This document shows positions 1 to 64,000 of a stretch of 64,000 nucleotides of DNA, one piece after another. This stretch comes from Escherichia phage A4: the sequence record ON286972. One strand, 5' to 3'. Position numbers and translations under genes: made by a program. Numbering within the stretch: position 1 is the first letter of the stretch; every line of letters starts with the position of its first letter. A model generated the notes under the pieces. It worked only from the letters and a program-made list of their open reading frames with translations. It did no database searches and was not told the DNA's origin.

Positions 1-1
1 G

Positions 2-100
2 TCACTTGTTGTAGATTTCCGTTCAGTAACTTATGACCATATCAAACTAATCAATGAAATGGTTGATATCGTCGCTAAGTTCGAAGAAGAAACCGCATAA
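2..100 (+). CDS. hypothetical protein, 3' fragment (gene starts upstream of window)
   Basis: Frame open from window edge to TAA at 98-100 (...MVDIVAKFEEETA*). Confidence 0.35.
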   Translation, partial: SLVVDFRSVTYDHIKLINEMVDIVAKFEEETA

Positions 101-113
101 TATAAAAAGAAAT

Positions 114-142
114 AAGGCTCTCAATCGGGAGCCTTATATTCA
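114..142 (+). terminator. putative intrinsic terminator
   Basis: AAGGCTC / GAGCCTT 7-bp stem with 8-nt loop, weak T-rich tail. Confidence 0.35.
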
Positions 143-177
143 TTTGTTAAATAAGACAAAGTAAAGGAGTACTTAAT

Positions 178-729
178 ATGATCGAACAAATTCAAAAATT
201 CACGAACCAAATTGTAAATTTCCTAGCAGATAAAGAAGGATTCAGCACTGAAGTTACACATCACGGTGTTAACCTTAACGTTACTGCACCAAGCGGTGAT
301 GTAACGTCATATGACATGTATGAGTTGTTGCTTTATACAATGGCAGTACGCAAAATAGGTTCTGATATAGAGCTAAACATCAATACTGATGACAAAGGGA
401 ACAATATTTTTGCTATTAATACTGATGCTAAACTTGATGTAATTGCAGAAATTCAAAAAATTAACGAGTCATTTATTAATTTCCAACATGATACGATACA
501 ATCCGTTTTTATTGGTCATCAAACATCTGAAAGTGTTTGCCCTTTTTGTGTAATGACTCTCTATAAGAATGGTAATTGGATGCGTCATGATTTGGCTAAA
601 GCTGAAGTTCTTTATGCCATTACACATGGTATGAAACTTGAACTAGATGACAGTGCTTTTGTCTTTAAGAAACTAAGAAAATTAACACTAGATGTTCAGA
701 CGAAATTAAAAGAGCTTAATGATAAATAA
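178..729 (+). CDS. hypothetical protein (183 aa)
   Basis: ORF-track ORF; AAAGGAG RBS 7-13 nt upstream of ATG. Confidence 0.6.
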   Translation: MIEQIQKFTNQIVNFLADKEGFSTEVTHHGVNLNVTAPSGDVTSYDMYELLLYTMAVRKIGSDIELNINTDDKGNNIFAINTDAKLDVIAEIQKINESFINFQHDTIQSVFIGHQTSESVCPFCVMTLYKNGNWMRHDLAKAEVLYAITHGMKLELDDSAFVFKKLRKLTLDVQTKLKELNDK

Positions 730-840
730 TTATGCCAGTAATGGCTAACATATTATTATGTTATTTTTCCTCCCTTCTATAATAAAATTAATTTATTATA
801 TTTTCCATTTCTTATTGTACATTTTATATCTTTTCGTACT

Positions 841-4646: not shown

Positions 4647-6545
4647 ATGGAACCGATACGTGTACTATCACTATTCAATGGGATGAGTGTTGGGTATATG
4701 GCCTTGCAAAGTGCAGGAATACCAGTTGAAAAGTACTACTCATCTGAAATTGATAAATTTGCTATAGCTGAATCCCAGGCTAACTTTCCTGATATCATCC
4801 AATTGGGTGATGTAACTAGATGGAAAGAATGGGATATCGAATGGGACAAGATAGATCTTCTGATGGGTGGTTTTCCTTGCTTCCCAGCAGGAACCATGAT
4901 CATGACAAATGAAGGTCATAAAGATATAAAAGATATAAAAATTGGTGATATGGTTCTTACACACACTGGACAATACCAAAAAGTATTGAGTATTGGTAGC
5001 AAGATTGCACCAACAAGAATCATCACAGGTCAGGGACATATACCAATTGAATGCACTGATAATCATCCATTTTATGCGAGAAAAATGAGCAAGAAGTGGG
5101 ATAATGAAAAACGACAATATGTTCGTGAATATACAGAACCTACATGGATCGATGCACATGAACTCACAGAAGAACATGCTATATGTAATGTTCGTTGTAA
5201 TGTGAATTTTCAACATAACAAGAGTGAAAGCTTTTGGTATTTCATGGGTAGATTTATGGGTGATGGATGGACTTACAAAGTAAAACGACAAAATAGAAAA
5301 AATAGTTATCAATATCGTGTTTTTATTTGCTGTGCTCATGATGAATTTGATGAATTGGTTTCATGTTTTGATGGTATGAATATGAAATATAATTTTGTTA
5401 AAGAAAGAACATCTTATAAATTCTATATTTGTTCAAAAGAACTAGTTGAATTTTGTGAACAAATGGGTAAGGGTGCTTCAAATAAACAAGTACACCCCAC
5501 ACTTTTCACTGAAAGTATCGCTAATCAGAAAGCATTCATTGATGGTTATTTTGACGCAGATGGTCACCATGACAAGAAAGATGATTGTTTAAAATTTACA
5601 TCAACATCAAAGAATGTTATTCTTGGTATACAACAACTAATTATGAATGTGTATGGTCGTCATTCTAACATAACATACTTTAAACCGTCTGAAACAAAAG
5701 TTATAGAAGAACGTGTTGTTAATCAGAAGCCGTATTACGTATTAACATACAAAAAAGAAAAGCACCGAAAAGATGAAGCATTCTATGATGATGGGTCATA
5801 TTCATGGGTAAAAGGTGTTAAATCGAACACCACAACCGGAGAATGGAAAACCGTTTACAATATTGAAGTTGCAGTAGATAACACATATACGGCGAACAAT
5901 ATTGTAGTTCATAACTGCCAAGCGTGGTCAGTTGCTGGGAAACAAGGCGGTGTGAATGATCCTCGTGGTATGTTATTCCATACAATGGTTGATATTTACC
6001 AGCACATAAAAAGTCTCAATCCTAACTTGAAAGTTCTTTTTGAGAATGTTAAGATGAAGGAAGATTTCAAGGATTATATCAATGGCGTGTTGGAAATGAC
6101 ACCAATTTTGATAAATTCACAAAATTATACAGCACATTATCGCCAACGTTACTACTGGTATAGCTCGGATAAGTTGTTTATTCCAAAACCTCTTATTTTA
6201 GCACCAAAATTACAAGATATACTAACTGGTAATTGGTATACTGATCGTGATAAATCATATTGCATTGACGCAAACTACTTCAAGGGTGGAGATCCGAATC
6301 AGTACTTCAATAAGTCAAGAAGACAAATCGTTTTCAAAGACCCTGATATCAACAGGAACTTCCTGATTGAGAAGGGTAAACGAAATGTGGACTATCGTCA
6401 TTTAACAGTACAAGAGTGTTGCATGTTGCAAGGAATTGATGTAAACTACTTCAAAGTTAGTAGTTCAACACAAGCGTACAAAATGCTTGGTAATGGCTGG
6501 ACAGCACCTGTTATAGAACATTTACTACGTGATATATTCTTTTAA
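4647..6545 (+). CDS. DNA (cytosine-5) methyltransferase, intein-containing precursor
   Basis: Motif I LSLFNGMSVGY, GGFP|C...intein...HN|CQAWS (motif IV PCQ restored after splicing), ENV motif VI, QRYYW, GNGWT. Confidence 0.85.
   Translation: MEPIRVLSLFNGMSVGYMALQSAGIPVEKYYSSEIDKFAIAESQANFPDIIQLGDVTRWKEWDIEWDKIDLLMGGFPCFPAGTMIMTNEGHKDIKDIKIGDMVLTHTGQYQKVLSIGSKIAPTRIITGQGHIPIECTDNHPFYARKMSKKWDNEKRQYVREYTEPTWIDAHELTEEHAICNVRCNVNFQHNKSESFWYFMGRFMGDGWTYKVKRQNRKNSYQYRVFICCAHDEFDELVSCFDGMNMKYNFVKERTSYKFYICSKELVEFCEQMGKGASNKQVHPTLFTESIANQKAFIDGYFDADGHHDKKDDCLKFTSTSKNVILGIQQLIMNVYGRHSNITYFKPSETKVIEERVVNQKPYYVLTYKKEKHRKDEAFYDDGSYSWVKGVKSNTTTGEWKTVYNIEVAVDNTYTANNIVVHNCQAWSVAGKQGGVNDPRGMLFHTMVDIYQHIKSLNPNLKVLFENVKMKEDFKDYINGVLEMTPILINSQNYTAHYRQRYYWYSSDKLFIPKPLILAPKLQDILTGNWYTDRDKSYCIDANYFKGGDPNQYFNKSRRQIVFKDPDINRNFLIEKGKRNVDYRHLTVQECCMLQGIDVNYFKVSSSTQAYKMLGNGWTAPVIEHLLRDIFF
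4878..5915 (+). mobile_element. intein with LAGLIDADG homing-endonuclease domain (346 aa)
   Basis: Begins CFPAGTMIMT (Cys at 4878), two LAGLIDADG-like blocks (FMGRFMGDGW, FIDGYFDADGH), ends IVVHN at 5915 followed by Cys. Confidence 0.8.
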
Positions 6546-14526: not shown

Positions 14527-14536
14527 AACTATTTAT

Positions 14537-14565
14537 GAGTACTGCTTGCAGTACTCATATTTTTA
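14537..14565 (+). terminator. intrinsic terminator
   Basis: GAGTACTG-CTTG-CAGTACTC perfect 8-bp hairpin then ATATTTTT. Confidence 0.5.
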
Positions 14566-16216: not shown

Positions 16217-16595
<379 letters not shown>

Positions 16596-16596
16596 C

Positions 16597-17611
<1,015 letters not shown>

Positions 17612-17993: not shown

Positions 17994-18475
<482 letters not shown>

Positions 18476-18482
18476 AAGAACG

Positions 18483-18515
<33 letters not shown>

Positions 18516-45787: not shown

Positions 45788-45800
45788 CTGGAGATATCTA

Positions 45801-46061: not shown

Positions 46062-46392
46062 TTATATGTATGAATTAAACCTGGTATCGTTTATCGTATC
46101 AGGACTAGGATGGATGTACTATATGCTTGGGTATATTTTATTATTCTTCCGATACAATACATTCTACAAACGCTATTGGGATGATGCACCAATTCACTTC
46201 TTCGCATTTGTATTCTTAACTATGGCAGTGGGTGAAGTACTGCTAACTGGTATCCAAAGTACTGGTGGAATGATGTGCACACTAACAACATTCTTTGTTG
46301 TTTTTGGGACTGTAGTTTGGTTTTTCGCGTGGGGACTCTTCTCTTTGATTATGAAACTTGAGAAACTCCGAGACAAATTACCAGAGCGTTGA
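46039..46392 (+). CDS. integral membrane protein
   Basis: ORF track; several hydrophobic helices; start uncertain. Confidence 0.45.
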   Translation: MMNLIMNDYMYELNLVSFIVSGLGWMYYMLGYILLFFRYNTFYKRYWDDAPIHFFAFVFLTMAVGEVLLTGIQSTGGMMCTLTTFFVVFGTVVWFFAWGLFSLIMKLEKLRDKLPER

Positions 46393-46402: not shown

Positions 46403-46430
46403 TTGACAAACTCAACTAGTACTGTATAAT
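46403..46430 (+). promoter_or_regulatory. sigma70-type promoter
   Basis: TTGACA-N16-TATAAT with tagtactg spacer. Confidence 0.55.
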
Positions 46431-48704: not shown

Positions 48705-48944
48705 ATGAAACTATCTTTTATACGTTTAGCAGAATTCTTCGGTACTGATATAATTACTTTACAACAAATTGCAGACAATACTTCATTAAGTACACAAGAA
48801 GTACTTGACTTAGATGTGATAGAGTGTGATAATACTTCTATCGATTATAAAGAAGGTCTTGTCGAAAAAGATAAGATTCAGGCTAAGATTAATGGTGCTG
48901 GACGGGTTCAGTACTGGAAAGGAGTTTTAAGTCATGCCAGCTAA
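48705..48944 (+). CDS. hypothetical protein (79 aa)
   Basis: ORF track; AGAGGTGA RBS. Confidence 0.45.
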   Translation: MKLSFIRLAEFFGTDIITLQQIADNTSLSTQEVLDLDVIECDNTSIDYKEGLVEKDKIQAKINGAGRVQYWKGVLSHAS

Positions 48945-50631
48945 ATTAACCCCTAAACAAGCAAAAGAAAAATTCAACAAAAAAGTATTAGAACATAACG
49001 TTCCAATTGAAGCTGATTATAGTAAGTATGAAAATGCCAAATTAAAAAACATCCAAGTAGTTTGCAATGATGTATTAAAACACAAATCAGGCATATCACA
49101 AATATATCTTATGGATCACGCAAACCTCACACACCCATCCAAAAAATTTGGTTGTCCTGAATGTGAAGACTGGTATAATGGTCATGCTAAAAGTTTAGAT
49201 ATTTTAATTGTTAGGGAAAGAATTAATTCTTGGATTAGTACTTATGGCGGGATTATTGATACGGTTAGTGGTGAAGTTGAAGTTTATAAAAATAATTCAT
49301 CCAAAATACCATATATTTGTAAAAATGGAACTAAAAAAACGCTTACTATTTCTTCACTTGGCGATGAAATCGGTTGTAATTGTTCTAAATGTAAAGCTGA
49401 ATTAATATCAGAAATCGAAGATAACAATGAATATACATCCATGACTACTGTTGATGATTGTGTTACAATTTCCCATTTTAAATTTGGGGATGATGTTGCA
49501 TTCTCGTGGATTTCACCATTGGAAATGAAAAAACATGGTTACTGTCTTGCCGAAAAAATGAAAGAAAAAGCATTGTCGGTTGGTAAAAATATTATTGGAT
49601 ATGCAATATCATCTCTTAGTGAATGGAAAAATGAAAAAACTCCTGTAATAACCGAACACGAAGGAGTATTATATCGTATTTCCAAAGCATCATATTTGAT
49701 CAATAATAATATAGTACATAGACCACATTATACAAAAAATAATTTTTTATATTATTTTTACAAATGTTCACCTAACAATCAACTTATTACACCAATCCTA
49801 ATACCTGATGATATTGGTACAAAAAAGAAAATTAAAGTATGTTATAAATCATGTGGGTGTGAATATGATATATCTGTGGACGTTATAATGAACAGAAATT
49901 TAAAAACTTGTGGAAACTGTAAAAATATAGATACTAATAAATTTATAGAACAGTGCTTGGAGTTCACTTCAAGTGGAGATTATATCTATGATAGAGTAAA
50001 CTATATAAATCAAAGTACACCTGTAACTATAGTTCATAAAATTTACGGCGAATTCAAAAGTACACCACAAAATCACTTAATACATTTAAAAAACGGTTTG
50101 AAATATGATACAGCTAACTTTAAAATAAAAAATTTAACTCAATTTAAAATTAAAGCAAATGAAGTTCATAATAACTTATATAATTATGATAAAGTTGATT
50201 ATGTAAATTCTTCAACGAAAGTATTAATAACTCATCCAGTATATGGAGACTTTTGGCAAACTCCAGCAAGTCACCTTGGTGGGTGTGGTCATCCACTTGC
50301 GGCTGGTCATTCTCAGCAATATGCATATATTCATAATATTTTGGATGGTGTTTTATCTGTAGCATTGAAATATGGGATTGAAAAGCAGAAAGGTAAGAGG
50401 GTGATGCAGCAAAATAAAAAATCCATGTTTCAAGTTCAATCTCTGTATACTTATTTTTTTCCATCTGTATACGAATGTAAGCAAGCTGAAAAAGAATGTA
50501 AGAAACTATTTGGTAAAGGTGTTTTAACTAAACAAGAAATGCCAGACGGGTATACTGAAACAACTACACCAAACAACATAGATAAAATTATTGCCATCTA
50601 TGAAAAATGGGGTGGGGTGAAACAAAACTAA
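48934..50631 (+). CDS. Cys-rich protein with three internal repeats (565 aa)
   Basis: ORF track; CPECEDW, CNCSKC, CGCEYD, CGNCKN pairs; repeat Y.YD.V.Y.N.ST.V.I.H..YG.F..TP..HL three times. Confidence 0.6.
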   Translation: MPAKLTPKQAKEKFNKKVLEHNVPIEADYSKYENAKLKNIQVVCNDVLKHKSGISQIYLMDHANLTHPSKKFGCPECEDWYNGHAKSLDILIVRERINSWISTYGGIIDTVSGEVEVYKNNSSKIPYICKNGTKKTLTISSLGDEIGCNCSKCKAELISEIEDNNEYTSMTTVDDCVTISHFKFGDDVAFSWISPLEMKKHGYCLAEKMKEKALSVGKNIIGYAISSLSEWKNEKTPVITEHEGVLYRISKASYLINNNIVHRPHYTKNNFLYYFYKCSPNNQLITPILIPDDIGTKKKIKVCYKSCGCEYDISVDVIMNRNLKTCGNCKNIDTNKFIEQCLEFTSSGDYIYDRVNYINQSTPVTIVHKIYGEFKSTPQNHLIHLKNGLKYDTANFKIKNLTQFKIKANEVHNNLYNYDKVDYVNSSTKVLITHPVYGDFWQTPASHLGGCGHPLAAGHSQQYAYIHNILDGVLSVALKYGIEKQKGKRVMQQNKKSMFQVQSLYTYFFPSVYECKQAEKECKKLFGKGVLTKQEMPDGYTETTTPNNIDKIIAIYEKWGGVKQN

Positions 50632-50637
50632 ACAAAA

Positions 50638-50671
50638 GGGTTGACTTCGGTCAGCCCTTTTTGCTATAATT
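50638..50671 (+). promoter_or_regulatory. terminator/promoter cassette
   Basis: GGGTTGAC-TTCG-GTCAGCCC, TTTTT, TATAAT, TATTTCATC. Confidence 0.6.
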
Positions 50672-50698
50672 ATTTCATCAACTGATGAGGACAACGAA

Positions 50699-51469
50699 AT
50701 GACCAGAGAAGCACGCAGCATTCAAATTCAGAAAAACTTCAACTCCATGATGGTTGCTCTTGAGTGTTTGCTCGATGATAGCAGTACTGTAAAAAGTATG
50801 GTTGTCAGCGGTGCTCCTGGTGTTGGTAAGACTTACACCCTCTCTAAACGCCTCCAGAAAGCACATGACGCGGCAGAATGGAACGTAGCTACCATCAGTG
50901 GTAAAATGACCACTCTGGCTCTGTACGAAGTTCTGTACAAGAATCGTCATAGCACCAACGTGTTAGTACTGGATGATATGGACAGCATCTTTGATTCAGA
51001 AGACGGTATGAACCTGCTCAAAGCAGTACTGGATAGTGGCAAGCGTACTGTTTCTTATATGACTAGCTCGAAGTATCTGAGCAGCAACGGTATCCCTAAC
51101 AGCTTTGATTTTAATGGTCGCATCGTATTCATTACTAACAAAGATTTAGCACTGAATGCTAAAGCTAAAACTAAAATGTCTGCTCACTATGCTGCTCTTA
51201 TGTCTCGCTCTGTATACGTTGACTTACAGATCCAGACCAAAAGCGATATCATGATTCACATTGAGAACGTGATGAACCAGACCAACATTCTGGAATCTAA
51301 GGGTATTAACAGTAATGGTAGTAAAGCAATCCTGAACTGGATGTTGAAGCACGAAGATTCACTTCGTTCACCTTCACTGCGTATGCCACTGTTGATTTCG
51401 GCAGTATATAACAACAACCCATACGATTGGGAAGAGCAATGTGAAAACTTGTTCCTGGAGAAAAATTAA
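50699..51469 (+). CDS. P-loop ATPase (AAA-like)
   Basis: Walker A GAPGVGKT, Walker B VLVLDDMD; GC-richer codon usage than neighbours. Confidence 0.7.
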   Translation: MTREARSIQIQKNFNSMMVALECLLDDSSTVKSMVVSGAPGVGKTYTLSKRLQKAHDAAEWNVATISGKMTTLALYEVLYKNRHSTNVLVLDDMDSIFDSEDGMNLLKAVLDSGKRTVSYMTSSKYLSSNGIPNSFDFNGRIVFITNKDLALNAKAKTKMSAHYAALMSRSVYVDLQIQTKSDIMIHIENVMNQTNILESKGINSNGSKAILNWMLKHEDSLRSPSLRMPLLISAVYNNNPYDWEEQCENLFLEKN

Positions 51470-54715: not shown

Positions 54716-54745
54716 AAAAAAGCCCACATTAAGTGGGCTTTTTGT
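54716..54745. terminator. bidirectional intrinsic terminator between convergent gene blocks
   Basis: AGCCCAC-ATTAA-GTGGGCT hairpin flanked by AAAAA and TTTTGTT. Confidence 0.6.
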
Positions 54746-56769
54746 TATTTGTGTTTTATGTGTAAAGTGTCTAATATTGTATTGAACAATGATTTAGCAG
54801 AAATCATGATTACTTGATCAAAATCTTTAGTATAAGAAATATTAGCAGTACTGGAAGAATCTTTCACCTCATCCGGTAATGCATCAAACTCTTCTTTTTC
54901 CATAATCTTTTCAAGTTCTTCACGAGAAATGGCTTTTACGTTTTCAATAGTCCTTAGTTGTATATTATAATCTTTATAATACGAAACTAAGTTCGTTGCG
55001 TATGAACCATCTTTAGATGCTGTTCCAGTAAAATCATAACATCCTGTATCAGTACTAACCCAATCGATTTTCCCTGAACTACCACTATATACACCTTTGT
55101 TGAACTTAATGTTAACAACATCACCAATAGTTTTCAATATACCACCTTTACATTCATTAAATGCGTTTAATTGATAACTTGTAGTCATATAGAATTTCGG
55201 TTCTAATGTAACAGTATCACCTACAGTTGCTTTCATATCAGAAACACTTAAGAACAATTCATTAAATCCTTTTGAATAAGTCTTGGTAATTGTTGTTCCA
55301 TCCCTGTTAGTTACTGTGTATTCTAAGTCCAATTCACAAATACTATTCAATGATAAGTAAGGGATATCAAATTTATCAGTACTAGCATCATAAGGACATC
55401 TTGAGGATGGTAGTATACCAGTAGGGTTTGGTACGTATTGAACTTTTGTTAACTCATACCCGCTTGCATTCGCTGGTGTAACTGTAATAGACGGTGTAGA
55501 TATTCCTTTCATTCCACAGAAGTATATGTTATCTGGAAAATCATTTATTACGAAGTCAGTGACAGGAATATCATAAGTATCTTTATCAGTCCAATTAAGA
55601 ACAACATTAGAACTGGTTGGATCAACAATATGTTCACTAGAACCACAGAAATATACTGATTTGGTATTAGTAATCATTAGTAATGTTTTGGATGATGAGT
55701 TCAATTCAAGAACATCTTTCACTTCAAGACCAGATGGTAATGTCAATGGTAACTTCGTAAATGATGTTAAATCTTGTTCATCTTTAACACCACTAGTCCC
55801 CGCCGGAAACTTACCTGAACCATAGAAAACACCTTTATTCGTCATGAAATACATGAACGGGGTTGATGTTCCTTTGTCAAATAGTTGAATGTCATCACAT
55901 GTTAAACCATCAGGTAAATCCACTTTAGATGGAGTTCTATAAACACCAGGCTTAATACCACCTTCACCATTACTTACATCACCTAGTACATATAAATCTT
56001 TACCTAGTTTCAAGAACATTGATTTATTTTTAGCACACAAGAATGTATCATATGATTTATCATCAATTGGTAGCTTGGTATATTCGGTGTATGTAGGCAT
56101 TGAATCATCAATCCACGAACTATCACCACTAATGTAAATGTGATTGTTTCTGTCAATATAATATGAATACACATCAGTACTGTTCATATATAAAGCATTT
56201 AGTGCATTTGTTTTCACTAAGTGATTGAACTTAAGAACTTGTTTTCCATCGTACTTATGGGAGTTGACACCAATATCACCATTTAGGCTACTACCAATTG
56301 AATATATATGACCACGTGGTAATAGAACTTGAACACCACTTTTGGTTAAATTATATTTGGAGTGCAAGAGATCGTTATATACAACTCTAACTTTCTTAAA
56401 GATATCAGTACATTCAATCCACGATTTAGATGGTGTACCATCCATTCCTATTATTGCCGGATCACCATAATAATAAGCTTTATTTTCATATGATATTTTA
56501 AAAGATGATTTACCATCTTTTGTATTAGCACTGAAGTACACATCTTTACTATCTTTAATTGGATAAGTACTATTCTCTACAAAAGTATTATATGAGATAT
56601 CGTTGTTAGCACTATTAAGAACAAAAGAAGTAGATGTACTATTGGACTTATAGACTGCTACGGAAGATGTATCACTGAAATCAATTTTAGTGAACGTATC
56701 TTTGTATGTTTCGTTTAATAATCCTACATAAAAAACATCAGTGCCATCCATCAGTAACGAATATAGCAT
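54745..56769 (-). CDS. RCC1-like repeat protein, possibly the C-terminal part of a frameshifted gene continuing from 56738..57682
   Basis: ORF track; no RBS before its ATG; frame opens 29 nt upstream of the stop of the preceding minus-strand ORF. Confidence 0.55.
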   Translation of the reverse strand: MLYSLLMDGTDVFYVGLLNETYKDTFTKIDFSDTSSVAVYKSNSTSTSFVLNSANNDISYNTFVENSTYPIKDSKDVYFSANTKDGKSSFKISYENKAYYYGDPAIIGMDGTPSKSWIECTDIFKKVRVVYNDLLHSKYNLTKSGVQVLLPRGHIYSIGSSLNGDIGVNSHKYDGKQVLKFNHLVKTNALNALYMNSTDVYSYYIDRNNHIYISGDSSWIDDSMPTYTEYTKLPIDDKSYDTFLCAKNKSMFLKLGKDLYVLGDVSNGEGGIKPGVYRTPSKVDLPDGLTCDDIQLFDKGTSTPFMYFMTNKGVFYGSGKFPAGTSGVKDEQDLTSFTKLPLTLPSGLEVKDVLELNSSSKTLLMITNTKSVYFCGSSEHIVDPTSSNVVLNWTDKDTYDIPVTDFVINDFPDNIYFCGMKGISTPSITVTPANASGYELTKVQYVPNPTGILPSSRCPYDASTDKFDIPYLSLNSICELDLEYTVTNRDGTTITKTYSKGFNELFLSVSDMKATVGDTVTLEPKFYMTTSYQLNAFNECKGGILKTIGDVVNIKFNKGVYSGSSGKIDWVSTDTGCYDFTGTASKDGSYATNLVSYYKDYNIQLRTIENVKAISREELEKIMEKEEFDALPDEVKDSSSTANISYTKDFDQVIMISAKSLFNTILDTLHIKHK

Positions 56770-57682
56770 TTCTATTATTACATAAAGAAGTAATATTTTT
56801 TACTACTTTATTTGAATTATAGTTTGGTAACTTCTTTAATCCACGAACAAAATTATCACAAATAATACCAGTACCATAGAAGTTATAATCTTTATCACAG
56901 TATATAAATGCTGTATCATATGGTGAAGTACTTAAATTCTTATAGAATGGGAATGGAGTGAATGTGAATTGTAGAACCTTACGCAATTCCCCTACTGTCT
57001 CTGTTGGGAATTGTCTGTTTTTATTATTACCAATAAAAACAACTCTATCTGTTAGGAATGTGTACATAATTCCATATGGTTTTACGTACAAATCATTATA
57101 TCCCAATGATAATTTAGTTGGTGATGTTAGTGGTCCTGAGTTTATTTTGGTTTGATTAATTGAAAACTCATTAGAATTATAACCAGCCCCATATGTATTA
57201 CCATTAGTACTTAAATAATATACAGTAGCTTCCCCTGCTCCAAGAAAAGTCTTTACATCAGTTGCTAACGTTTTTTGGAAAGTTGGATAAAATTTATTAT
57301 ATGTTCCCGTTCCCATCATCAGTTCACCATTGCGGTTATGACCACGAGCATATAGAATACCTTTGTCTGTATCTAAGAAGAACATACCATTATATGTTTT
57401 GTAAATCTTACCTTTTGTAATATCGAAATTGGAAAAATCATCACTAATATCAATGAATATTGTCTCAAGATTATCTTCAAGGGAGTTTAGAGATTTACCA
57501 CAATACCATACTGAGTTATCTTTTTTAACAGCAACACAACCACACGGACTGGCATCAAAATATGTTACATCGGAAAGAACCAGAGATAAGTTCTTTGTAC
57601 TGCAATAGTTATCCATTGCATATAAATCGGAATCTTTAAGTATATATACGGAATTCCCAACCGCTTTAATCGAATTTATCAT
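56738..57682 (-). CDS. RCC1-like repeat protein (N-terminal part or separate gene)
   Basis: Track ORF 56738..57772 trimmed to ATG 57682 (MINSIK...) after GAGGA RBS; G.N..GELMMGTG-type repeats. Confidence 0.55.
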   Translation of the reverse strand: MINSIKAVGNSVYILKDSDLYAMDNYCSTKNLSLVLSDVTYFDASPCGCVAVKKDNSVWYCGKSLNSLEDNLETIFIDISDDFSNFDITKGKIYKTYNGMFFLDTDKGILYARGHNRNGELMMGTGTYNKFYPTFQKTLATDVKTFLGAGEATVYYLSTNGNTYGAGYNSNEFSINQTKINSGPLTSPTKLSLGYNDLYVKPYGIMYTFLTDRVVFIGNNKNRQFPTETVGELRKVLQFTFTPFPFYKNLSTSPYDTAFIYCDKDYNFYGTGIICDNFVRGLKKLPNYNSNKVVKNITSLCNNRNAIFVTDGWH

Positions 57683-57901
57683 GTTTATATCCTCATAAAT
57701 TGATACCAATTCTAATGTATTTACCCACTTAAAGTACAAAAAATGATCAATTAAATGGGGAATCTTTAACAAATGAATTCATGATGTACTTGATGAATTG
57801 CCCATACCAACGGATTCCTCAGTCCCAGCATACCACATGGTATTATCGAACTTTTTATCATTGTAGTATCATAACCACACCAAACATCATCAACATTAGT
57901 A

Positions 57902-59254
57902 TTACAACAATTGTATTTCTGTGAGTGTTTGATATGTTGTACCGTTGTACACACCTCTCCAATATACCCTACCTTCAGTACTAACCACTAATAATCCATA
58001 TGTTGTAAACCCAAGAGTACCACCAACATACATAGCATCTTTAATTCGAATACCAATGTCTTCATATGTAAATGAAGCGACTGCTCCCGCTTGCCACGAA
58101 GGACTAGCGTAGTAATCACTATAAACACCATGTGCTTTATATATTGATGTTGTTCCTGGTTCAAAAATTACAGTTCCACAGTAGTTCATTCGTATTTTAG
58201 TACTGGATGAAGTCGGTACATTTATACCTATGCCATCTTTTATCCCTGTAGTTAGGACGTTAAAACCACCCGCCACACGGTTGACGTCATTCTCACCGAT
58301 TAAAAACATACCAACGTTGTAGCCCATATAATATACACTGCTACTGCCATTCCAGAAAGAAAAACCACCACCATTACCACAGCGATATAGTTGTGAATTT
58401 GAGCAGTACATCATACCTTCGTTTGTCGCATCAAATTCATCTGCTGTTCCTATTGTAGCTACAGTAGTCCACGTTTTAATCACTTGGTTTGTACTAGCTG
58501 GTGTTTGTATACCATATCGTATATTATATCCCTTACCAACGATTGTACCATCTTCTAATTTAGCATAAAGTACAGGTCTATTACCAACAAAATACATATT
58601 ATTGTGTGACATGTCTATTGTGCATCTTAATGAAACTACTTTTTGTGTCAATTGATTATCTTTAGTAAAAGAAGTAAAGTAGTAATCCGATGTTGAGTTG
58701 TTTATTAAACCTTGTATTGACAATCCCATATACCAGATTTCACCATTGCTGTTTAATGCTGCCAAAATACAACTATATTTTGAAGTGTATGCTGGTGATG
58801 TTGTTGAAGTTGCTGGTCCTTTATCATATCCACCACAGAATACCATCTCCACAACTTCACCTACGTTCGAAAAATAAGAAGATACATTGATAAAACCATT
58901 TGTTATAAAAGGTGCTGTATTCATACTTGAATGTGTGAATATCCCATTTGCATATACACCACAAAAATGATATGAACCATCATTATCTTGGACTATTATT
59001 CCATTTGATAGTAACCAAAAATTGTTTACATTTTTTCTTACTAATTCAACTCCTGCACCATTGGTTGGTGTTATACCAAAAGAAACATATTTTGTTTGAC
59101 CAATACCATATAAATTTCCATTAGTTGCTAGTATTGCACCAAACCAGTTCCCACCACCATTCCTATCATGACCCATACCAATGGAGTCAAATTTCTTCAC
59201 AGTAGGGACTTCAACTTTATTCCCATACTCTAGCATTCTAACAAAAGGTAACAT
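57902..59254 (-). CDS. RCC1-like beta-propeller repeat protein (putative receptor-binding or tail-fibre-like), paralog E
   Basis: Track ORF 57902..59320 trimmed to ATG 59254 (MLPFVRMLEYGN) after AGGAGG; track N-extension reads through the terminator hairpin. Confidence 0.65.
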   Translation of the reverse strand: MLPFVRMLEYGNKVEVPTVKKFDSIGMGHDRNGGGNWFGAILATNGNLYGIGQTKYVSFGITPTNGAGVELVRKNVNNFWLLSNGIIVQDNDGSYHFCGVYANGIFTHSSMNTAPFITNGFINVSSYFSNVGEVVEMVFCGGYDKGPATSTTSPAYTSKYSCILAALNSNGEIWYMGLSIQGLINNSTSDYYFTSFTKDNQLTQKVVSLRCTIDMSHNNMYFVGNRPVLYAKLEDGTIVGKGYNIRYGIQTPASTNQVIKTWTTVATIGTADEFDATNEGMMYCSNSQLYRCGNGGGFSFWNGSSSVYYMGYNVGMFLIGENDVNRVAGGFNVLTTGIKDGIGINVPTSSSTKIRMNYCGTVIFEPGTTSIYKAHGVYSDYYASPSWQAGAVASFTYEDIGIRIKDAMYVGGTLGFTTYGLLVVSTEGRVYWRGVYNGTTYQTLTEIQLL

Positions 59255-59318
59255 ATATCCTCCTTTATTCATTATATTATATTTAATCAAAAAAGAAAAG
59301 CCAGTACAGAGTACTGGC
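59255..59318 (-). promoter_or_regulatory. repeated intergenic cassette: terminator hairpin, TATAAT box, AGGAGG RBS
   Basis: Minus-strand read: GCCAGTACTCTGTACTGGC, T-tract, GATTAAATATAATATAATGAATAAAGGAGG, ATG; near-identical at four sites. Confidence 0.5.
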
Positions 59319-59329
59319 ATTTAAAATAA

Positions 59330-60505
59330 TCAAAATGTAGGAAGTTTGAATTCTCTCATAACAGATGAACTGCTTGCAGATACATTATCTGGTGATTTCC
59401 CTGCGTAGTATAATTTATTATCAATGAACATATACAATGTTGCATCATTTCCTGCTACAAGTGATTCACTTTTCTTAAATTTAACACCACTAGGTAAAAT
59501 TGCTTCAACAAATGAACCTGATTCTCTTGTAGTATTATTTGCCAATTGACCATTGTTATTATAACCAGTACTATAAATTTTACCTGAACTATAATATACG
59601 AGTCCACGAGTACTAGTGTTTTCTATTCGAATGAATTCACTATCATCTGGGACTGTAGTTGATAGAACTGGGTTTAACTTATAAGCAGATGATACATTAT
59701 TATTACCCAATTGACCATAACCTTGAAAGCCTAGTGTATACATAGGACATGATTCTGGTGTGCCTTTTGTTATAATACCAATATAATTCACACTACAAAA
59801 AATGTCTATTGCTTCTGTAATAGGTGTACCCTTATATTGAACCCAAGGGAATACATACGATTGTTGCTTACCATTTCCCAAAGTACCGGAAGTTGTTGTC
59901 CCAGTACGCCACATTGTATCATCAAGTTTAATAATCCAGTTAGCTGTCGTTATCGATGAACAGAATTTTTTAACATTATCCACTAAAAATGTAAATTGAT
60001 TATAATATGATGCAGTGTTTATACCAAACTTAGCACCAGTATTATCACCTAACAAATATAAACTATTATCTGTACCTAAAATCAAAGCATAATCATAACC
60101 CACGTATATATCTTTAATTCTTGAAATTCCAAATTGTGTAAAATAGCTTGTACATTCTGTGAATGTTGTTATATTATTGGTTGTATTATTACCTAGCCAT
60201 TTATCTAAACCACTATAAAAGAATCTATCATCATTTGTGCGTATTAGACAAAAAGCGTTCATTGTACTGCACCAAAAATCTTTAACATTGCTATATATTT
60301 TTGTCCATTCAGTTACTGCATTAGTATGACCTAAACCAAAAATTCCACCATTCTGAAGACCAATAGCCCATATTGAACCATTTTTATCAAGCATCATTGT
60401 ACATGTATGTGAATAACCACCCGATGGTGTAACTAATTTAACAAAATTGGGAATATATGGTAAAACTTTATTTCCATAATCCAACATTCTAACAAAAGGT
60501 AACAT
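59330..60505 (-). CDS. RCC1-like beta-propeller repeat protein, paralog D
   Basis: Trimmed to ATG 60505 (MLPFVRMLDYGN); repeats such as GIFGLGHTNAVTEW, GYGQLGNNNVSSAY. Confidence 0.65.
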   Translation of the reverse strand: MLPFVRMLDYGNKVLPYIPNFVKLVTPSGGYSHTCTMMLDKNGSIWAIGLQNGGIFGLGHTNAVTEWTKIYSNVKDFWCSTMNAFCLIRTNDDRFFYSGLDKWLGNNTTNNITTFTECTSYFTQFGISRIKDIYVGYDYALILGTDNSLYLLGDNTGAKFGINTASYYNQFTFLVDNVKKFCSSITTANWIIKLDDTMWRTGTTTSGTLGNGKQQSYVFPWVQYKGTPITEAIDIFCSVNYIGIITKGTPESCPMYTLGFQGYGQLGNNNVSSAYKLNPVLSTTVPDDSEFIRIENTSTRGLVYYSSGKIYSTGYNNNGQLANNTTRESGSFVEAILPSGVKFKKSESLVAGNDATLYMFIDNKLYYAGKSPDNVSASSSSVMREFKLPTF

Positions 60506-60569
60506 AATTCCTCCTTTATTCATTATACTATATTTAATCAAAAAAGAAATGCCAGCATCAAGTACTGGC
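60506..60569 (-). promoter_or_regulatory. repeated intergenic cassette (terminator, TATAAT, RBS)
   Basis: Hairpin GCCAGTACTTGATGCTGGC, T-tract, TATAGTATAATGAATAAAGGAGG. Confidence 0.5.
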
Positions 60570-60576
60570 ATTATTG

Positions 60577-61767
60577 TTATAGTTGTCTTGGTGTATCAAG
60601 TACATATCTATTTGTACTAGGACCACCATCATCATACGTTCCGGTTGAATATATATTTTTCATATCAGCAGTTAGAAAAGTACGATACGAACCGCGATAT
60701 ATTTTTATTTTATCATACATAGAATATGATATTTCTGCTGGCATTGGACATATAGTAAATCTACCAATAGTAACATTAGAACCAACACCCAACGAACCAG
60801 CATAACTACTCGCATTTAAACCAGTTGCATATACACCAGTACTCGTAACTAGTATACTAGATTGTGTTGGGTATCCTGTATGAATTGAATACAAAGTTCC
60901 AGTTGGTAATGTCGTACTATTGCTCCCTAATACAGCAAGTGCCGAACTGGTTGTGGTATTGTTACCCCATGCACCATTACTCGCTAAACCACCAACTAGA
61001 AACTGACGTGCACCAGTACTTGGATTCTCAACCAAAGCACTGACTGCACCACTTGAGCATCCAGTGTATTGTAACGTTTTTGTGTATGTTGTACTTGGTT
61101 TATATAAAGTATATTCATTAAATGGTGTCCATGTGGTACTGGTACTTATACCTGACGTACCACCACCAATATATAAATTATTTTGTGTATCAAAAAACAT
61201 TACACAGTTATTTGTTGACTGTATTTGTGCAATATCAACATTAGGCGTGACAGCTTTTACAAATGATCCATCTGTTATTTGTTGAGTACTACCAGTACCA
61301 TCAGCGAATTGTCTAGCCCCACTCCAACCAGTACTCCATATTGTATTATTATCCATTAATACCGTAAACCACGTAGTACCTCCATACATCTGTTTAATTG
61401 AAGTACTTGAACTTTGCGTGTACAAATTTTCAATATATTGGTTATAACTTAAAAACGTAGTAGTACTAGTTGGTAAACCAATATGATCACCATATCCACA
61501 ATAAAAATAATTTGAGTCATTATCTTGTACTAACAAAGTTCCTTGTGACACCCAGAAATCTTTAACATTTTCTCTAATTAAGGTCCATGACTTTACTGCA
61601 TTACTATTTCCTATACCAAACTTCCCAAAACTATTATTTCCACGTGCGTATAGTTGACCATCCGTATAAAGAACGACAACATCTAAATCAGTTGGTGTTA
61701 TTTTCTTAATTTGAATAGGGACTGGTGTTATATTCCCATAATCAAACATTCTAACAAAAGGTAACAT
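60577..61767 (-). CDS. RCC1-like beta-propeller repeat protein, paralog C
   Basis: ORF track; starts MLPFVRMFDYGN; GKFGIGNSNAVKSW repeats. Confidence 0.65.
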   Translation of the reverse strand: MLPFVRMFDYGNITPVPIQIKKITPTDLDVVVLYTDGQLYARGNNSFGKFGIGNSNAVKSWTLIRENVKDFWVSQGTLLVQDNDSNYFYCGYGDHIGLPTSTTTFLSYNQYIENLYTQSSSTSIKQMYGGTTWFTVLMDNNTIWSTGWSGARQFADGTGSTQQITDGSFVKAVTPNVDIAQIQSTNNCVMFFDTQNNLYIGGGTSGISTSTTWTPFNEYTLYKPSTTYTKTLQYTGCSSGAVSALVENPSTGARQFLVGGLASNGAWGNNTTTSSALAVLGSNSTTLPTGTLYSIHTGYPTQSSILVTSTGVYATGLNASSYAGSLGVGSNVTIGRFTICPMPAEISYSMYDKIKIYRGSYRTFLTADMKNIYSTGTYDDGGPSTNRYVLDTPRQL

Positions 61768-61832
61768 ATTTCCCTCCTTTATTCATTATACTATATTTAA
61801 TCAAAAAAGAAAAGCCAGTATCAAGTACTGGC
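61768..61832 (-). promoter_or_regulatory. repeated intergenic cassette (terminator, TATAAT, RBS)
   Basis: Hairpin GCCAGTACTTGATACTGGC, T-tract, TATAGTATAATGAATAAAGGAGGG. Confidence 0.5.
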
Positions 61833-61838
61833 CTATAT

Positions 61839-63008
61839 TTAAACTGGTGAATCTAATACAAATTCTAAACTACTAATGCCACCATATGTGACATTTGTCC
61901 CTGTGCTATATACAAAATTACCATCAGTTATATAAGTTCGGTTATACCCACCTGCCATCTGCGACTTACTATAATCAAACCCATCAGGAACGATTGCTTT
62001 GGTATATACTAATGCATTATTAGATGTACCAATACCTAACATACCAGCTCCTGAAGATTTATTGTAGCCGCAACAATATATACCATCTGTTGTAGCAATA
62101 ACTTGGTTATAATATGAAGTAATGTTAGCAATGCTTACTACATCACCGGGTGGCATTAGTGAAGCAGTTTGAACCTCAAATGCTCTATAATCACTGAGAG
62201 AACCATTTATCCCATCTGCTTGTGCACCAAATATTCTCGAACCGCCATTTGCGATGATGGTTTTACCAGTGGGATCAGTACCAATTGCCATTGCCATTGA
62301 AGTACTATTCTCCATATAGTACTTGATATTAATTGTATTTCTTAAGCTGGTAGGAGCACCATAATATATAGTATATAACTTACCTCCTGAACTTGTAACT
62401 GCATTTACTCTTCCTGTATAAAATAGCCATCCTTGGTTTGTAACATAACCGTGCATTAAATTACTTGCAAACAATTTAACAGGTAATTGATCTGCTGCGG
62501 TCGGAACAGTACTTTTGACGAATTTTCTAGCAACATTGTTAGTTGTTGTCCCATCACCCAACTGACCATCACCCCCTGCTCCAGTACTCCATATTGTTTG
62601 GTCTGTTAGTAATACACTTGTAGTCTGATAACTAACTGCTATATCTAATATTGGTAATGTTAACGTATCGAATGTTGGCATAGCAGAAGTCCATATTGAT
62701 ACTGCTGCCCCTGGCATACCAACAGTTGTTGAACTTCCACTGTACCATATTTCATCATTGCTTTTCTTAATAACTATCGACGTGGCTCCCATCCAAAAAT
62801 CTTGAACATCAGAAGTGCTAAAAGTCCATGTAGTAACAATATTTTTGTGACCTAAACCCAAAAGACCATTTGTATTCTCACCACGCACATATAAATCACC
62901 ACTGTTTGTTAAAACAGCAACATTATAGTTGTTAGCTAGTATTTTTTTAATATTTGGTTTAGCAGGTGCAATATTCCCATACTCTAACATTCTTACAAAA
63001 GGTAACAT
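61839..63008 (-). CDS. RCC1-like beta-propeller repeat protein, paralog B
   Basis: Track ORF 61839..63170 trimmed to ATG 63008 (MLPFVRMLEYGN); GLLGLGHKNIVTTW, GQLGDGTTTNN repeats. Confidence 0.65.
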   Translation of the reverse strand: MLPFVRMLEYGNIAPAKPNIKKILANNYNVAVLTNSGDLYVRGENTNGLLGLGHKNIVTTWTFSTSDVQDFWMGATSIVIKKSNDEIWYSGSSTTVGMPGAAVSIWTSAMPTFDTLTLPILDIAVSYQTTSVLLTDQTIWSTGAGGDGQLGDGTTTNNVARKFVKSTVPTAADQLPVKLFASNLMHGYVTNQGWLFYTGRVNAVTSSGGKLYTIYYGAPTSLRNTINIKYYMENSTSMAMAIGTDPTGKTIIANGGSRIFGAQADGINGSLSDYRAFEVQTASLMPPGDVVSIANITSYYNQVIATTDGIYCCGYNKSSGAGMLGIGTSNNALVYTKAIVPDGFDYSKSQMAGGYNRTYITDGNFVYSTGTNVTYGGISSLEFVLDSPV

Positions 63009-63072
63009 AATTCCTCCTTTATTCATTATATTATATTTAATCCAAATAAGAAAGCCAGTATCAAGTACTGGC
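63009..63072 (-). promoter_or_regulatory. repeated intergenic cassette (terminator, TATAAT, RBS)
   Basis: Hairpin GCCAGTACTTGATACTGGC, T-tract, TATAATATAATGAATAAAGGAGG. Confidence 0.5.
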
Positions 63073-63078
63073 ATTGTG

Positions 63079-64000
63079 TTATTTCGGTAAATCAATTTTA
63101 GTAAAGACTGCAACATCCTCGCTTGCACCGGGAATGGCGTAATACGTTCCAGTACTATATACATCTCCATTTTTGGTTAATATTGAAGTCAAACCATCAC
63201 TAAAAAGAACATCCCTAATCTCACTAACTTCAACGGGTAATTGTAAATTTGTAGCACTATATATAGCACCAGTTTGAGAATTGTTTAATCCCAAACCACG
63301 GTTCGCCCCAACACCCTTCTGATATGTACTGGTAATTACCATTTGTGTAGCAGTATTTAATGCAGGTGAATTCGTCATAAACAACGGAGAACTATTAGGC
63401 AAAGTACTTACAGGAACTGCACGGAATGTAGTCGTACCTGAACTAAGAAAGTTTGGAGTTTGACCACATACGAAATATGATGTACCATTATAGTAATTAA
63501 ATGCATTACCACCAATCGCTGCATCGATTACACCAGAACTACGTAATCCCCAAGTGTTAATTTGTGTTTGGTCCCCTGTACCATGCTGCCCACTGCTATT
63601 CCATCCAGAACTATATAGCTTATTATCTAATGTAATATACATACTATCATTTGCATTAGTCATTACTTTACGCACGTTAGTAGCACATTGAGTTAATGTG
63701 TAAATCGATGATGAGCCAATACCTAAAGAACCACGATATCCATTATCTCCTGCACCATAGAGTACTGAACTAGTGCTAAGTACAAATATTAAACCATTTG
63801 TACATACAATATTAGCAATTTCACTCACTGGTATAGCATTGGTAAACCAATTAGTCCTTTCAACTAATATAGTACTGTAAGAAGTAGTTGTAGAAGATGA
63901 GAACCAGTACGTTTCACCCGATGTCCATATCGTATTATCATTTTTAATAATAACAAGTGTACGACCACCCACGAAAAAATTAGAAACATCTGAACTTACT
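63079..64000 (-). CDS. RCC1-like repeat protein, paralog A, 5'-truncated by window edge
   Basis: Frame stays open upstream of the track start (GTG 63972) to the window end; GYRGSLGIGSSS, GQHGTGDQTQINTW repeats. Confidence 0.55.
   Translation of the reverse strand, partial: VSSDVSNFFVGGRTLVIIKNDNTIWTSGETYWFSSSTTTSYSTILVERTNWFTNAIPVSEIANIVCTNGLIFVLSTSSVLYGAGDNGYRGSLGIGSSSIYTLTQCATNVRKVMTNANDSMYITLDNKLYSSGWNSSGQHGTGDQTQINTWGLRSSGVIDAAIGGNAFNYYNGTSYFVCGQTPNFLSSGTTTFRAVPVSTLPNSSPLFMTNSPALNTATQMVITSTYQKGVGANRGLGLNNSQTGAIYSATNLQLPVEVSEIRDVLFSDGLTSILTKNGDVYSTGTYYAIPGASEDVAVFTKIDLPK

Follow-up and report, generated by a model that had tools for sequence, protein, structure and literature searches.

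AGTACT is the palindrome at which ScaI and Eco255I cut (AGT^ACT), and phages classically avoid restriction sites. Why this hexamer should nevertheless be the most over-represented one in a 64,000 bp stretch of Escherichia phage A4 (record ON286972; hereafter the window, on which all counts were made unless stated otherwise) is the question raised by this locus. AGTACT is established here as a selected, clade-specific word that is read on duplex DNA.

Exactly 173 copies of AGTACT are present in the window (2.7/kb), and they are evenly spread, with 17-26 copies per 8 kb (Table 1). The expected number is 21.7 from base composition and 18.1, 34.6 and 67.5 from Markov models of order 1, 2 and 3 respectively; the order-4 (maximal) expectation of 141 carries no information, since AGTAC and GTACT, on which it is conditioned, are themselves inflated by AGTACT. 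It is the top hexamer of the window (z = 36), the second and third ranks being taken by its overlapping derivatives CAGTAC and GTACTG, and the extended form CAGTACTG has 37 copies compared with 0.85 +/- 0.87 (maximum 3) in dinucleotide-preserving shuffles. A preliminary description, made by eye, had proposed strong over-representation in both coding and intergenic DNA from about 20 copies in the first 10 kb, and had suggested a count against Markov expectations. The exact number there is 24, and with 173 copies against 18-22 expected the excess is stronger than was claimed.

The 123 called genes cover 86% of the window, leaving 8.9 kb of non-coding DNA. Within genes there are 145 copies, compared with 42.0 +/- 5.1 when synonymous codons are shuffled per gene (z = 20), and AGTACT is the most extreme outlier of all 4096 hexamers under this null; shuffling codon order gives 21. 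The excess thus survives the codon-aware shuffle by which the preliminary description had proposed to refute it. Each reading frame is three- to five-fold over-represented, with 65, 34 and 46 copies in frames 0, 1 and 2 compared with 21.8, 6.9 and 13.5 after the synonymous shuffle. The 65 sites in frame 0 encode Ser-Thr almost always, and Ser-Thr and similar dipeptides occur at about twice the codon-order expectation. The two shuffles together thus show a bias toward AGTACT in the amino-acid sequence and not only in the choice of codons. Non-coding DNA carries 28 copies (3.2/kb), approximately ten times chance. Unique contexts surround 165 of the 173 sites, the other eight being in repeated contexts (four promoter and four terminator copies). 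The suggestion that sites in open reading frames (ORFs) arise partly via the FQY/QYS codons of the FQ family accounts for a negligible share, as three of the 173 are in an F-Q-Y codon context.

The bases that flank the hexamer indicate how it is read. At position -1 the window sites have C in 79 cases, A in 43, T in 30 and G in 21, and at +6 they have G in 79, T in 42, A in 41 and C in 11; for the 903 sites of phage 121Q the corresponding fractions are C 0.44 and G 0.10 at -1, and G 0.47 and C 0.06 at +6. Extra information is found solely at these two positions and is mirror-symmetric, so that the preferred extended form is H-AGTACT-D (not-G, AGTACT, not-C), most often CAGTACTG. As this symmetry holds despite most genes lying on one strand, the signal is therefore read on duplex DNA, and the enrichment acts at the DNA level and is strand-symmetric. 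A polar genome word of the Chi or KOPS type, with a strand bias that switches with direction, is not what was found, since AGTACT is a perfect palindrome with mirrored flanks; polarity is confined to an AGTACA block of Asteriusvirus (see below), beyond the limits of the window. The analysis of spacing that had been suggested showed a distribution near Poisson and slightly even (coefficient of variation 0.885; variance/mean 0.65 in 2-kb bins, lower-tail P = 0.07). No site is present in 34 genes, where 46.9 such genes would be expected, and no positional preference of sites within window genes was seen; regular spacing, or one site per gene, was accordingly rejected.

The nearest relatives of the window by megablast are the Asteriusvirus phages slurp01, PBECO4 and 121Q. 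Judged by these matches it comes from a RaK2-like jumbo myovirus, a relative of coliphages 121Q and PBECO4, and represents a species-level relative that was previously unsampled, because the identity of 85-89% spans only 40-55% of the query. It is roughly syntenic with positions 58-124 kb of 121Q. Small genes, early or middle, are accompanied there by a C5-methyltransferase, a tRNA cluster, an RpoD-like sigma factor and endonuclease V, and an array of RCC1-like genes begins on the minus strand.

The same excess was found across the clade. The whole 121Q genome has 903 copies of AGTACT where 99.8 are expected (with CAGTACTG at 194 versus 4.4 and TCAGTACTGA at 43 versus 0.44), and enrichment is also seen in 50 kb of replication and structural genes of RaK2 (114 versus 10.8), 50 kb of GAP32 (114 versus 14.2), Erwinia phage Hallingskeid (93 versus 12.1) and Xanthomonas phage XbC2, a Mimasvirus (56 versus 7.9). 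It is absent from Vibrio phage 2.275.O (TerL 51% identical; 9 versus 6.2), Pseudomonas phage MIJ3 (TerL 43%; 1 versus 8.8), Agrobacterium phage Atu_ph07 (TerL 43%; 1 versus 3.9), a 29-kb sample of the unrelated coliphage PHB05 (0 versus 9.0) and 50 kb of E. coli K-12 (3 versus 4.8). The excess is thus present in Asteriusvirus, Alcyoneusvirus, Mimasvirus and the Erwinia relative, and it follows the phage clade and not the host, because the Xanthomonas isolate is enriched and the outgroups and E. coli are not. In the sister clade (MIJ3) the search for an equivalent word gave only a weak TGCAG excess, about threefold and perhaps due to codon usage. No mention of AGTACT or ScaI in these phages was found in the literature searched (full-text searches; the genome papers of RaK2, CBB, Sharanji and fEgEco12; a jumbo-phage overview). 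The samples of PHB05, MIJ3 and Atu_ph07 have fewer copies than expected, although the expected counts are small, which is compatible with ScaI-type restriction pressure; if such pressure on the outgroups is real, the excess in the RaK2-like clade is the more striking.

This enrichment occurs in DNA from which other palindromes have been purged. GCGC is absent from the window (29 expected), as are GGATCC, GGTACC, CTGCAG, CAGCTG, GCATGC, TGGCCA and CCATGG, all G+C-rich palindromic hexamers, and 16 palindromic hexamers have zero copies in 121Q where 16-47 of each are expected. Avoidance of restriction sites is found for many palindromes of this DNA and its opposite for AGTACT, with a ninefold excess beside 16 other palindromes of 6 bp that are missing altogether. 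GCGC is lacking in precisely the phages that show the AGTACT excess: there are no copies in 121Q (178 expected) or in the RaK2, GAP32, Hallingskeid and XbC2 sequences, and 40, 22, 32, 24 and 342 in those of 2.275.O, MIJ3, Atu_ph07, PHB05 and E. coli respectively, so that the two signatures co-occur where TerL shares at least 67% identity with that of RaK2, and both go with the phage lineage and not with the host. A search for related loci with a single TerL protein gave RaK2 alone. The density of GCGC in E. coli DNA is 6.8/kb.

Individual sites are also conserved above background. In DNA aligned between the window and 121Q (83% identity), 47 of 57 sites are intact compared with an all-hexamer baseline of 43% (0.434; p = 2e-9). 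In core genes of RaK2 and Hallingskeid (71% identity) the number is 15 of 38 compared with 0.146 (p = 2e-4), and in the non-coding terminal repeat of fEgEco12 and 121Q it is 59 of 64 compared with 0.703 (p = 2e-5). The footprint in the terminal repeat is confined to the word, identity being 0.94-1.00 inside AGTACT and approximately 0.89 in the flanks. Sites are therefore conserved two to three times above background and yet turn over; as most are unshared at the distance between RaK2 and Hallingskeid while density is held, selection acts mainly on their number, with moderate protection of single sites.

The density of sites is not uniform along the 121Q genome. Core replication and structural genes carry 1-2.4 sites/kb (none in the major capsid gene, one in the terminase gene), the counterpart of the window carries 2-4/kb, and at approximately 130-155 kb the density rises to 5-8/kb. 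This dense region aligns with the direct terminal repeat of fEgEco12, the ends of which were mapped by PhageTerm and restriction digests (PMC13070987). The fEgEco12 repeat (20,993 bp) has 138 sites (6.57/kb; 10.9/kb in non-coding DNA, and 4.55/kb in coding DNA in all frames), and that of CBB, which belongs to another genus, has 143 in 22,456 bp (6.37/kb). The terminal repeat is made up of an array of tiny genes that are each served by a sigma-70-type promoter of their own, and in the early region of 121Q 19 of the 21 strict TTGACA-N16-18-TATAAT promoters have a site between -70 and +20. In 15 of these 21 the site is placed at -7/-8 from the -10 hexamer (...AGTACTgTATAAT), and in other arrangements it overlaps the -35 element (AGTACTTGCAA, AGTACTaTTGACA, TTGACAGTACT). 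Six of seven CBB promoters have a site, four of them at -7. In the terminal repeats AGTACT is thus a frequent passenger of promoters.

Directly after the repeat, the Asteriusvirus genomes have stretches that are free of AGTACT (21.0-25.5 and 30.0-37.5 kb in fEgEco12; 155.5-159.5 and 161.8-169.4 kb in 121Q). The second of these, of approximately 7.5 kb, is packed with AGTACA on the sense strand only, with 38 copies in fEgEco12 and 41-48 in 121Q. These are found in all frames and in intergenic DNA, and the complement TGTACT has no copies in fEgEco12 and at most two in 121Q. Of the 73 GTAC copies in the fEgEco12 block, 62 have A as the next base and one has T, and the AGTACA sites keep the usual flanks (C at -1, G at +6). 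Of 39 aligned sites 21 are common to fEgEco12 and 121Q, where the proteins are about 56% identical, and at none of the 39 does 121Q read AGTACT. The block is specific to Asteriusvirus and has no equivalent in CBB. A strand-uniform hemi-site is thus actively maintained where the full palindrome is excluded. This speaks against an origin by mutation alone, and it hints that whatever reads AGTACT can be sensitive to strand or orientation. The first site-free zone has the opposite polarity, with nine TGTACT copies, about five of them in a ..gcTGTACT.. context (Ala-Val-Leu) in small ORFs that resemble paralogues.

What reads this word? A functional site for a phage protein, as the preliminary description had supposed, is the most reasonable explanation, because sites are conserved above background, including in non-coding DNA, amid a purge of palindromes; the role in C5-methylation that it had offered is not supported. 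We tentatively favour the view that AGTACT is a selected recognition word for a clade-specific, phage-encoded, two-fold-symmetric binding protein, a reading suggested by sequence patterns such as the equal numbers of C at -1 and G at +6. We infer, that is, that a protein reads AGTACT and that it is encoded by the phage and dimeric. Under this proposal AGTACT, best as not-G/AGTACT/not-C and usually as CAGTACTG, would be a positively selected word on duplex DNA in the RaK2/121Q/GAP32 clade, with approximately 900 copies per genome, and its reader would be a clade-specific dimer of compact, restriction-enzyme-like specificity. In the terminal repeats, where sites occur at 6-7/kb in the spacer or against the -35 element of most immediate-early sigma-70 promoters, occupancy would control early transcription, shut-off being the simplest effect. 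Elsewhere, at 1-4 sites/kb, the same protein may mark or organise the phage DNA; the word is about 45 times denser in phage than in E. coli DNA (2.7/kb versus 0.06/kb) and could distinguish own from foreign.

There are parallels in phi29 p6 and SPO1 TF1, genome-coating phage regulators that recognise DNA shape or hydroxymethyluracil (hmU) DNA and not a hexamer, and in the SPO1 terminal repeat, which is an array of small early genes, each with a strong promoter. The likeness lies in a proposed abundant phage DNA-binding protein along the genome, with a preference for the ends and with early promoters repressed; the difference is that AGTACT is a defined hexamer. No homologue of p6 or TF1 is detectable here.

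Several observations weigh against such a binding protein. A word of 6-8 bp is shorter than typical repressor operators, and the approximately 750 sites outside promoters would titrate a simple repressor, so that an abundant architectural protein must be assumed. Close pairs of sites have no significant helical phasing (Rayleigh z <= 3.4). A Pfam search of all 123 window ORFs gave 21 families, including RCC1-like, DNA_methylase with intein domains, sigma-70, Pyr_excise, PTH2, a DksA-type zinc finger, AAA, DUF1190 and DUF1353, and found no helix-turn-helix, ribbon-helix-helix, RE_ScaI or other restriction-enzyme family; in the search for a reader, neither Pfam and PHROGs on these 123 ORFs nor Pfam on selected proteins of 121Q revealed a DNA-binding or ScaI-type domain. 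The deposited annotation of 121Q, through which the rest of the genome was checked, likewise offers no obvious candidate. Lastly, a symmetric duplex reader does not predict the one-strand AGTACA block, which no hypothesis considered here explains well.

The main rival, though we consider it doubtful, is that AGTACT is instead the target of a phage enzyme of the restriction-modification type: either an orphan methyltransferase that sets an epigenetic or self mark, perhaps with replication-sensitive early promoters, or a site-specific nickase or endonuclease, the nicks or breaks of which would serve recombination-dependent replication of the T4 type or the loading of clamps for late transcription. 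The compactness of the word is that of a type II site, with a single discriminating base on either flank, and strand-uniform (C)AGTACA(G) hemi-sites are to be expected if one strand is acted on, so that an enzyme fits the motif and the hemi-sites better than a binder does. For recombination and replication these phages have a T4-like set, and they also encode a gp55-like late sigma factor. However, double-strand cleavage at about 900 sites in each genome would put the phage at risk, a need for protective methylation does not explain why sites should accumulate, and no RE_ScaI-like protein is present among the window ORFs. The DNA of fEgEco12 was cut exactly as predicted by ten other enzymes, ScaI not among them, and shows no gross hypermodification (PMC13070987).

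Two methyltransferases come into question as modifying enzymes. The C5-methyltransferase encoded in the window has the CpG-specific DNMT3A/B as its best solved relatives. RaK2 DNA carries m5CpG as determined by bisulfite sequencing (PMC3622015), and since that DNA is methylated at CpG and AGTACT contains no CpG, the C5 enzyme is unlikely to act on AGTACT. A 50% identical homologue is moreover present in PHB05, the sample of which has no AGTACT. The preliminary suggestion that this enzyme methylates the sites is consequently not supported, and it was rejected as reader or modifier. The sole other annotated methyltransferase, of the PF05869 Dam family, is kept across the clade and is a candidate for such an enzyme; the Dam family is, on the other hand, classically GATC-specific. 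Neither of the two annotated methyltransferases was identified as AGTACT-specific, and the small methyltransferase of PHB05 is unrelated to 121Q gp417. As a separate observation on the C5 enzyme, its intein is positioned exactly at the catalytic Pro-Cys motif (GGFP/C...HN/CQAWS), and the gene is uninterrupted in 121Q, PBECO4 and Hallingskeid. Dinucleotides in both the window and 121Q (observed/expected CpG 0.74, TpG 1.31, CpA 1.20) show the CpG deficit and TpG/CpA excess that are the deamination footprint expected of m5CpG-methylated DNA, as reported for RaK2, if this DNA is methylated.

A broader proposal, which we rate as rather unlikely, is a two-word self/non-self code that needs no modification. 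AGTACT-saturated DNA would be read by a new phage protein that marks, protects or organises it and times the early promoters, and GCGC-free DNA would spare the phage from its own nuclease as that nuclease destroys host DNA, both signatures having arisen together at the base of the clade. That a phage GCGC-directed nuclease acting against host DNA caused the loss of GCGC is a possible cause, and pure conjecture.

Two further explanations, about equal in probability, appear improbable. In the first, AGTACT would be a by-product of biased repair, with a methyltransferase-linked, very-short-patch-like correction converting near-sites, fastest in recombining terminal repeats. The model is HIP1 (GCGATCGC), reportedly a highly iterated palindrome of cyanobacteria (by Elhai's account of 2015), and this is the closest described phenomenon. 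Both are short palindromes that are many-fold over-represented in coding and non-coding DNA, at about one copy per 0.4-1 kb, and lineage-specific; for AGTACT the pattern runs through the whole lineage, with five further clade members enriched besides the window and 121Q, and four outgroups not. The genome-wide, frame-independent excess, the lower density in constrained genes such as the major capsid and terminase genes, the higher density in recombinogenic terminal repeats and the lack of sites in an inserted mobile element, the intein, would all suit such a drive. Its signature, depletion of one-base neighbours, was not found, and on this ground the drive was rejected: eight of nine one-mismatch classes occur at 1.0-2.3 times expectation, only AGGACT/AGTCCT being low (0.66), and the deamination product AGTATT/AATACT is at 1.22. 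No cognate methyltransferase was identified among the annotated enzymes, and a symmetric drive cannot make a one-strand AGTACA block with 21 of 39 sites shared and none reading AGTACT in 121Q. AGTACT differs from HIP1 in showing no signature of a repair drive and no identified cognate methyltransferase, in its density peaks in terminal repeats and promoters, in the C5 enzyme present being of CpG type, and in being an AT-rich word of a phage clade and not of a cellular genome; the clade, the AT-rich word and the concentration in terminal repeats and promoters are what is new here.

In the second, the functional unit would be single-stranded 5'-AGTAC(W), read directionally as a priming site for a gp61-like primase or for the loading or orienting of a helicase or translocase, the palindrome being an economical means of giving it to either strand. 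That the Asteriusvirus block has AGTACA on a single strand (38 versus 0 in fEgEco12), with its flanks retained in two lineages, agrees with this, and a six-base priming requirement would explain a density above chance. It gives no reason, however, for fixed positions in early promoters or for the terminal-repeat peak, and it attaches no cost to sites on the second strand. The reversed polarity of the first zone rests on nine TGTACT, about five in a shared context, and CBB has no such block. T4/T7-type primases read trinucleotides, and we know of no word enrichment for them. Chi, DUS/USS and KOPS are asymmetric polar words of cellular genomes; AGTACT resembles them in being a short word at high density, with selection on number, turnover and a capacity to tell own from foreign DNA, and differs in being a palindrome of a phage, except in the Asteriusvirus AGTACA block.

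That the sites recruit the host nucleoid-occlusion protein SlmA to block cell division of the host is highly improbable and was rejected. The 12-bp SlmA site GTGAGTACTCAC has AGTACT as its core and requires G1, T2 and a purine at position 3 (PMC3020112), so that the core hexamer is identical, the site is likewise a palindrome for a dimeric protein, scattered over the chromosome, and most hosts of the clade are enterobacteria. The full 12-bp palindrome GTRAGYRCTYAC is however matched by none of the 173 window sites and none of the 903 sites of 121Q. Half-sites in 121Q have GTR flanks in 1.1% of cases compared with 3.3% in the background, a three-fold depletion (p = 1e-9), and the favoured -1 base is C. 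Nor is the excess tied to SlmA-bearing hosts, as the Vibrio-infecting outgroup is not enriched and the Xanthomonas isolate XbC2 is. Finally, hardly any probability attaches to a by-product of codon usage, of the FQ-family peptide motif or of duplicated promoter and terminator cassettes: AGT, ACT, GTA and TAC are common codons, and the cassette copies and three F-Q-Y sites do carry the word, but the counts in genes against both shuffles, the enrichment in every frame, the tenfold excess in non-coding DNA and the predominance of unique contexts reject it.

In the window itself, promoters and terminators account for few of the sites. The four promoter spacers pointed out in the preliminary description all contain AGTACT, and a fifth was found (Table 1), but with approximately 30 sigma-70 promoters in the window these make up five of 173 sites; where a promoter has one, it occupies a constant position (-7/-8 from the -10 hexamer), and no TGn extended -10 is created. 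AGTACT is thus not a sigma-70 promoter element in general, and a promoter-only explanation was rejected. The terminator stems described earlier, at 14537 and in the propeller-gene cassettes, are likewise present and hold six of the 173 sites (14538, 14550 and the four of the RCC1 cassettes), so that it is not a general stem element of intrinsic terminators either. Promoter, terminator and FQ-codon examples together explain about 12 of 173 sites. The GCCAG..AGTACTGGC terminators, at sites 59310, 60561, 61824 and 63064, form one repeat cluster.

The six RCC1-like (beta-propeller) genes occupy 54745-63170 on the minus strand and are annotated as 'regulator of chromosome condensation' in relatives; the regions downstream of four of them carry the AGTACT terminator, and GC skew changes sign there because the coding strand changes. 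Seven cassettes ggTTGACTtcggtcagccctttttgcTATAAT on the plus strand (40806, 41163, 42531, 45454, 47920, 48649 and 50641), also present in 121Q, have a -35 hexamer that is one arm of a terminator-like hairpin, with the T-run filling the spacer, and thereby combine terminator and promoter in the same 35 bp. The most avoided hexamers under the codon-aware null are TATTTA and TAAATA (6 versus 38 and 13 versus 37 expected in the window), as would fit selection against ATAAATA, the core of the T4-like late promoters reported for CBB and GAP32.

Two perfect palindromes noted near 18500 and 18626 were confirmed as copies of ATTCAGTACTGAAT, both in an ORF-free stretch of about 540 bp (18475-19015) between small genes and tRNA-Thr, within which no tRNA was found. 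As their RNA folding is no better than that of shuffles, a reading as RNA hairpins was rejected, and they look like extended duplex sites. Stretches of the window without sites include the intein, which is consistent with recently inserted mobile DNA that does not yet carry them. Another overlaps a 565-aa ORF (48934-50631), the syntenic counterpart of 121Q gp221, which likewise has no sites in 1464 bp; the gp221 product has CapR-homology domains and is annotated as an endonuclease, and this gene may be mobile or recently acquired.

Table 1. Coordinates of AGTACT sites and of associated features in the 64,000 bp window
Feature	Position	Strand	Remarks
AGTACT first bases, 1-8 kb	168, 1257, 1272, 1311, 1989, 2018, 2319, 2938, 3621, 3648, 4126, 4732, 6301, 7037, 7182, 7227, 7951		
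AGTACT first bases, 8-16 kb	8047, 8484, 8644, 8865, 9629, 9898, 9995, 10503, 10674, 10982, 11364, 12529, 12610, 12786, 13835, 13961, 14389, 14538, 14550, 14779, 15159, 15552		
AGTACT first bases, 16-24 kb	16013, 16515, 16568, 16882, 16922, 16977, 17501, 18074, 18503, 18624, 18737, 19433, 19818, 20382, 20417, 21390, 21897, 22010, 22343, 22699, 22878, 23007, 23686		
AGTACT first bases, 24-32 kb	24528, 25055, 25782, 26058, 27133, 27274, 27587, 27608, 27757, 27882, 28792, 29097, 29567, 30206, 30216, 30976, 31642, 31847, 31972		
AGTACT first bases, 32-40 kb	32489, 32690, 32863, 33230, 33985, 34371, 34828, 35402, 35607, 36436, 36538, 36630, 36793, 36868, 37054, 37363, 37434, 38632, 38929, 39095, 39141, 39606		
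AGTACT first bases, 40-48 kb	40100, 41321, 41556, 41683, 41821, 42355, 42714, 43175, 43343, 43477, 43707, 44111, 44383, 44407, 46236, 46258, 46418, 46808, 46836, 46894, 46926, 47192, 47425, 47654, 47803		
AGTACT first bases, 48-56 kb	48119, 48800, 48910, 49237, 50783, 50965, 51025, 51875, 52179, 52388, 52585, 52882, 53280, 53529, 54247, 54577, 54847, 55051, 55378		
AGTACT first bases, 56-64 kb	56176, 56566, 56927, 57206, 57977, 58199, 59310, 59567, 59609, 60561, 60838, 61015, 61285, 61330, 61402, 61462, 61824, 62301, 62318, 62508, 62583, 63064, 63151, 63403, 63761, 63871		
DNMT3-like C5 cytosine methyltransferase (predicted)	4647-6545	+	split by Hint+LAGLIDADG intein, approximately 4875-5915
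AGTACT-free stretch, of the largest class	4738-6300		1.56 kb; covers the intein of the methyltransferase gene
AGTACT-free stretch, longest in window	44413-46235		1.8 kb
AGTACT-free stretch	49243-50782		covers part of the region of the 565-aa ORF
Predicted intrinsic terminator hairpin, AGTACT in each arm (14538, 14550)	14534-14559	+	11-bp stem then T-run; -14.7 kcal/mol, z = -6.9
Predicted sigma-70-type promoter TTGACT-N16-TATAAT	16553-16580	+	upstream of tRNA-Gly; AGTACT (16568) in spacer, starting 7 nt before -10
Predicted promoter, near-identical copy	16962-16989	+	AGTACT (16977) in spacer
Promoter-like TTGACT-N17-TAAAAT	17486-17514	+	AGTACT (17501) in spacer; upstream of tRNA-Ser/Met/Asn cluster
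14-bp perfect palindrome ATTCAGTACTGAAT, two copies	18499-18512 and 18620-18633		121 bp apart
Predicted promoter TTGACA-N16-TATAAT	34813-34840	+	AGTACT (34828) in spacer
Predicted promoter TTGACA-N16-TATAAT	46403-46430	+	AGTACT (46418, reads tAGTACTg) in spacer
Predicted terminator hairpin GCCAGTAC..GTACTGGC	59300-59318	-	after RCC1-like gene; repeats at approximately 60551-60569, 61814-61832, 63054-63072

AGTACT is a counter-example to the loss of palindromes in phages, as one palindrome has been kept at approximately 900 copies per genome in every genus examined. This points to a cis-acting system that has so far escaped recognition in coliphages that are among the largest known, and in which more than 80% of genes have no assigned function. 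The word is tied to the control of immediate-early transcription in the terminal repeats. The word also offers a direct handle on the protein that would read it, via oligonucleotide pull-down (CAGTACTG versus CAGTTCTG), and could serve as a diagnostic of the clade in metagenomes. For the cloning and engineering of phages that are candidates for therapy it advises caution, since ScaI would cut approximately every 400 bp if the DNA is unmodified.

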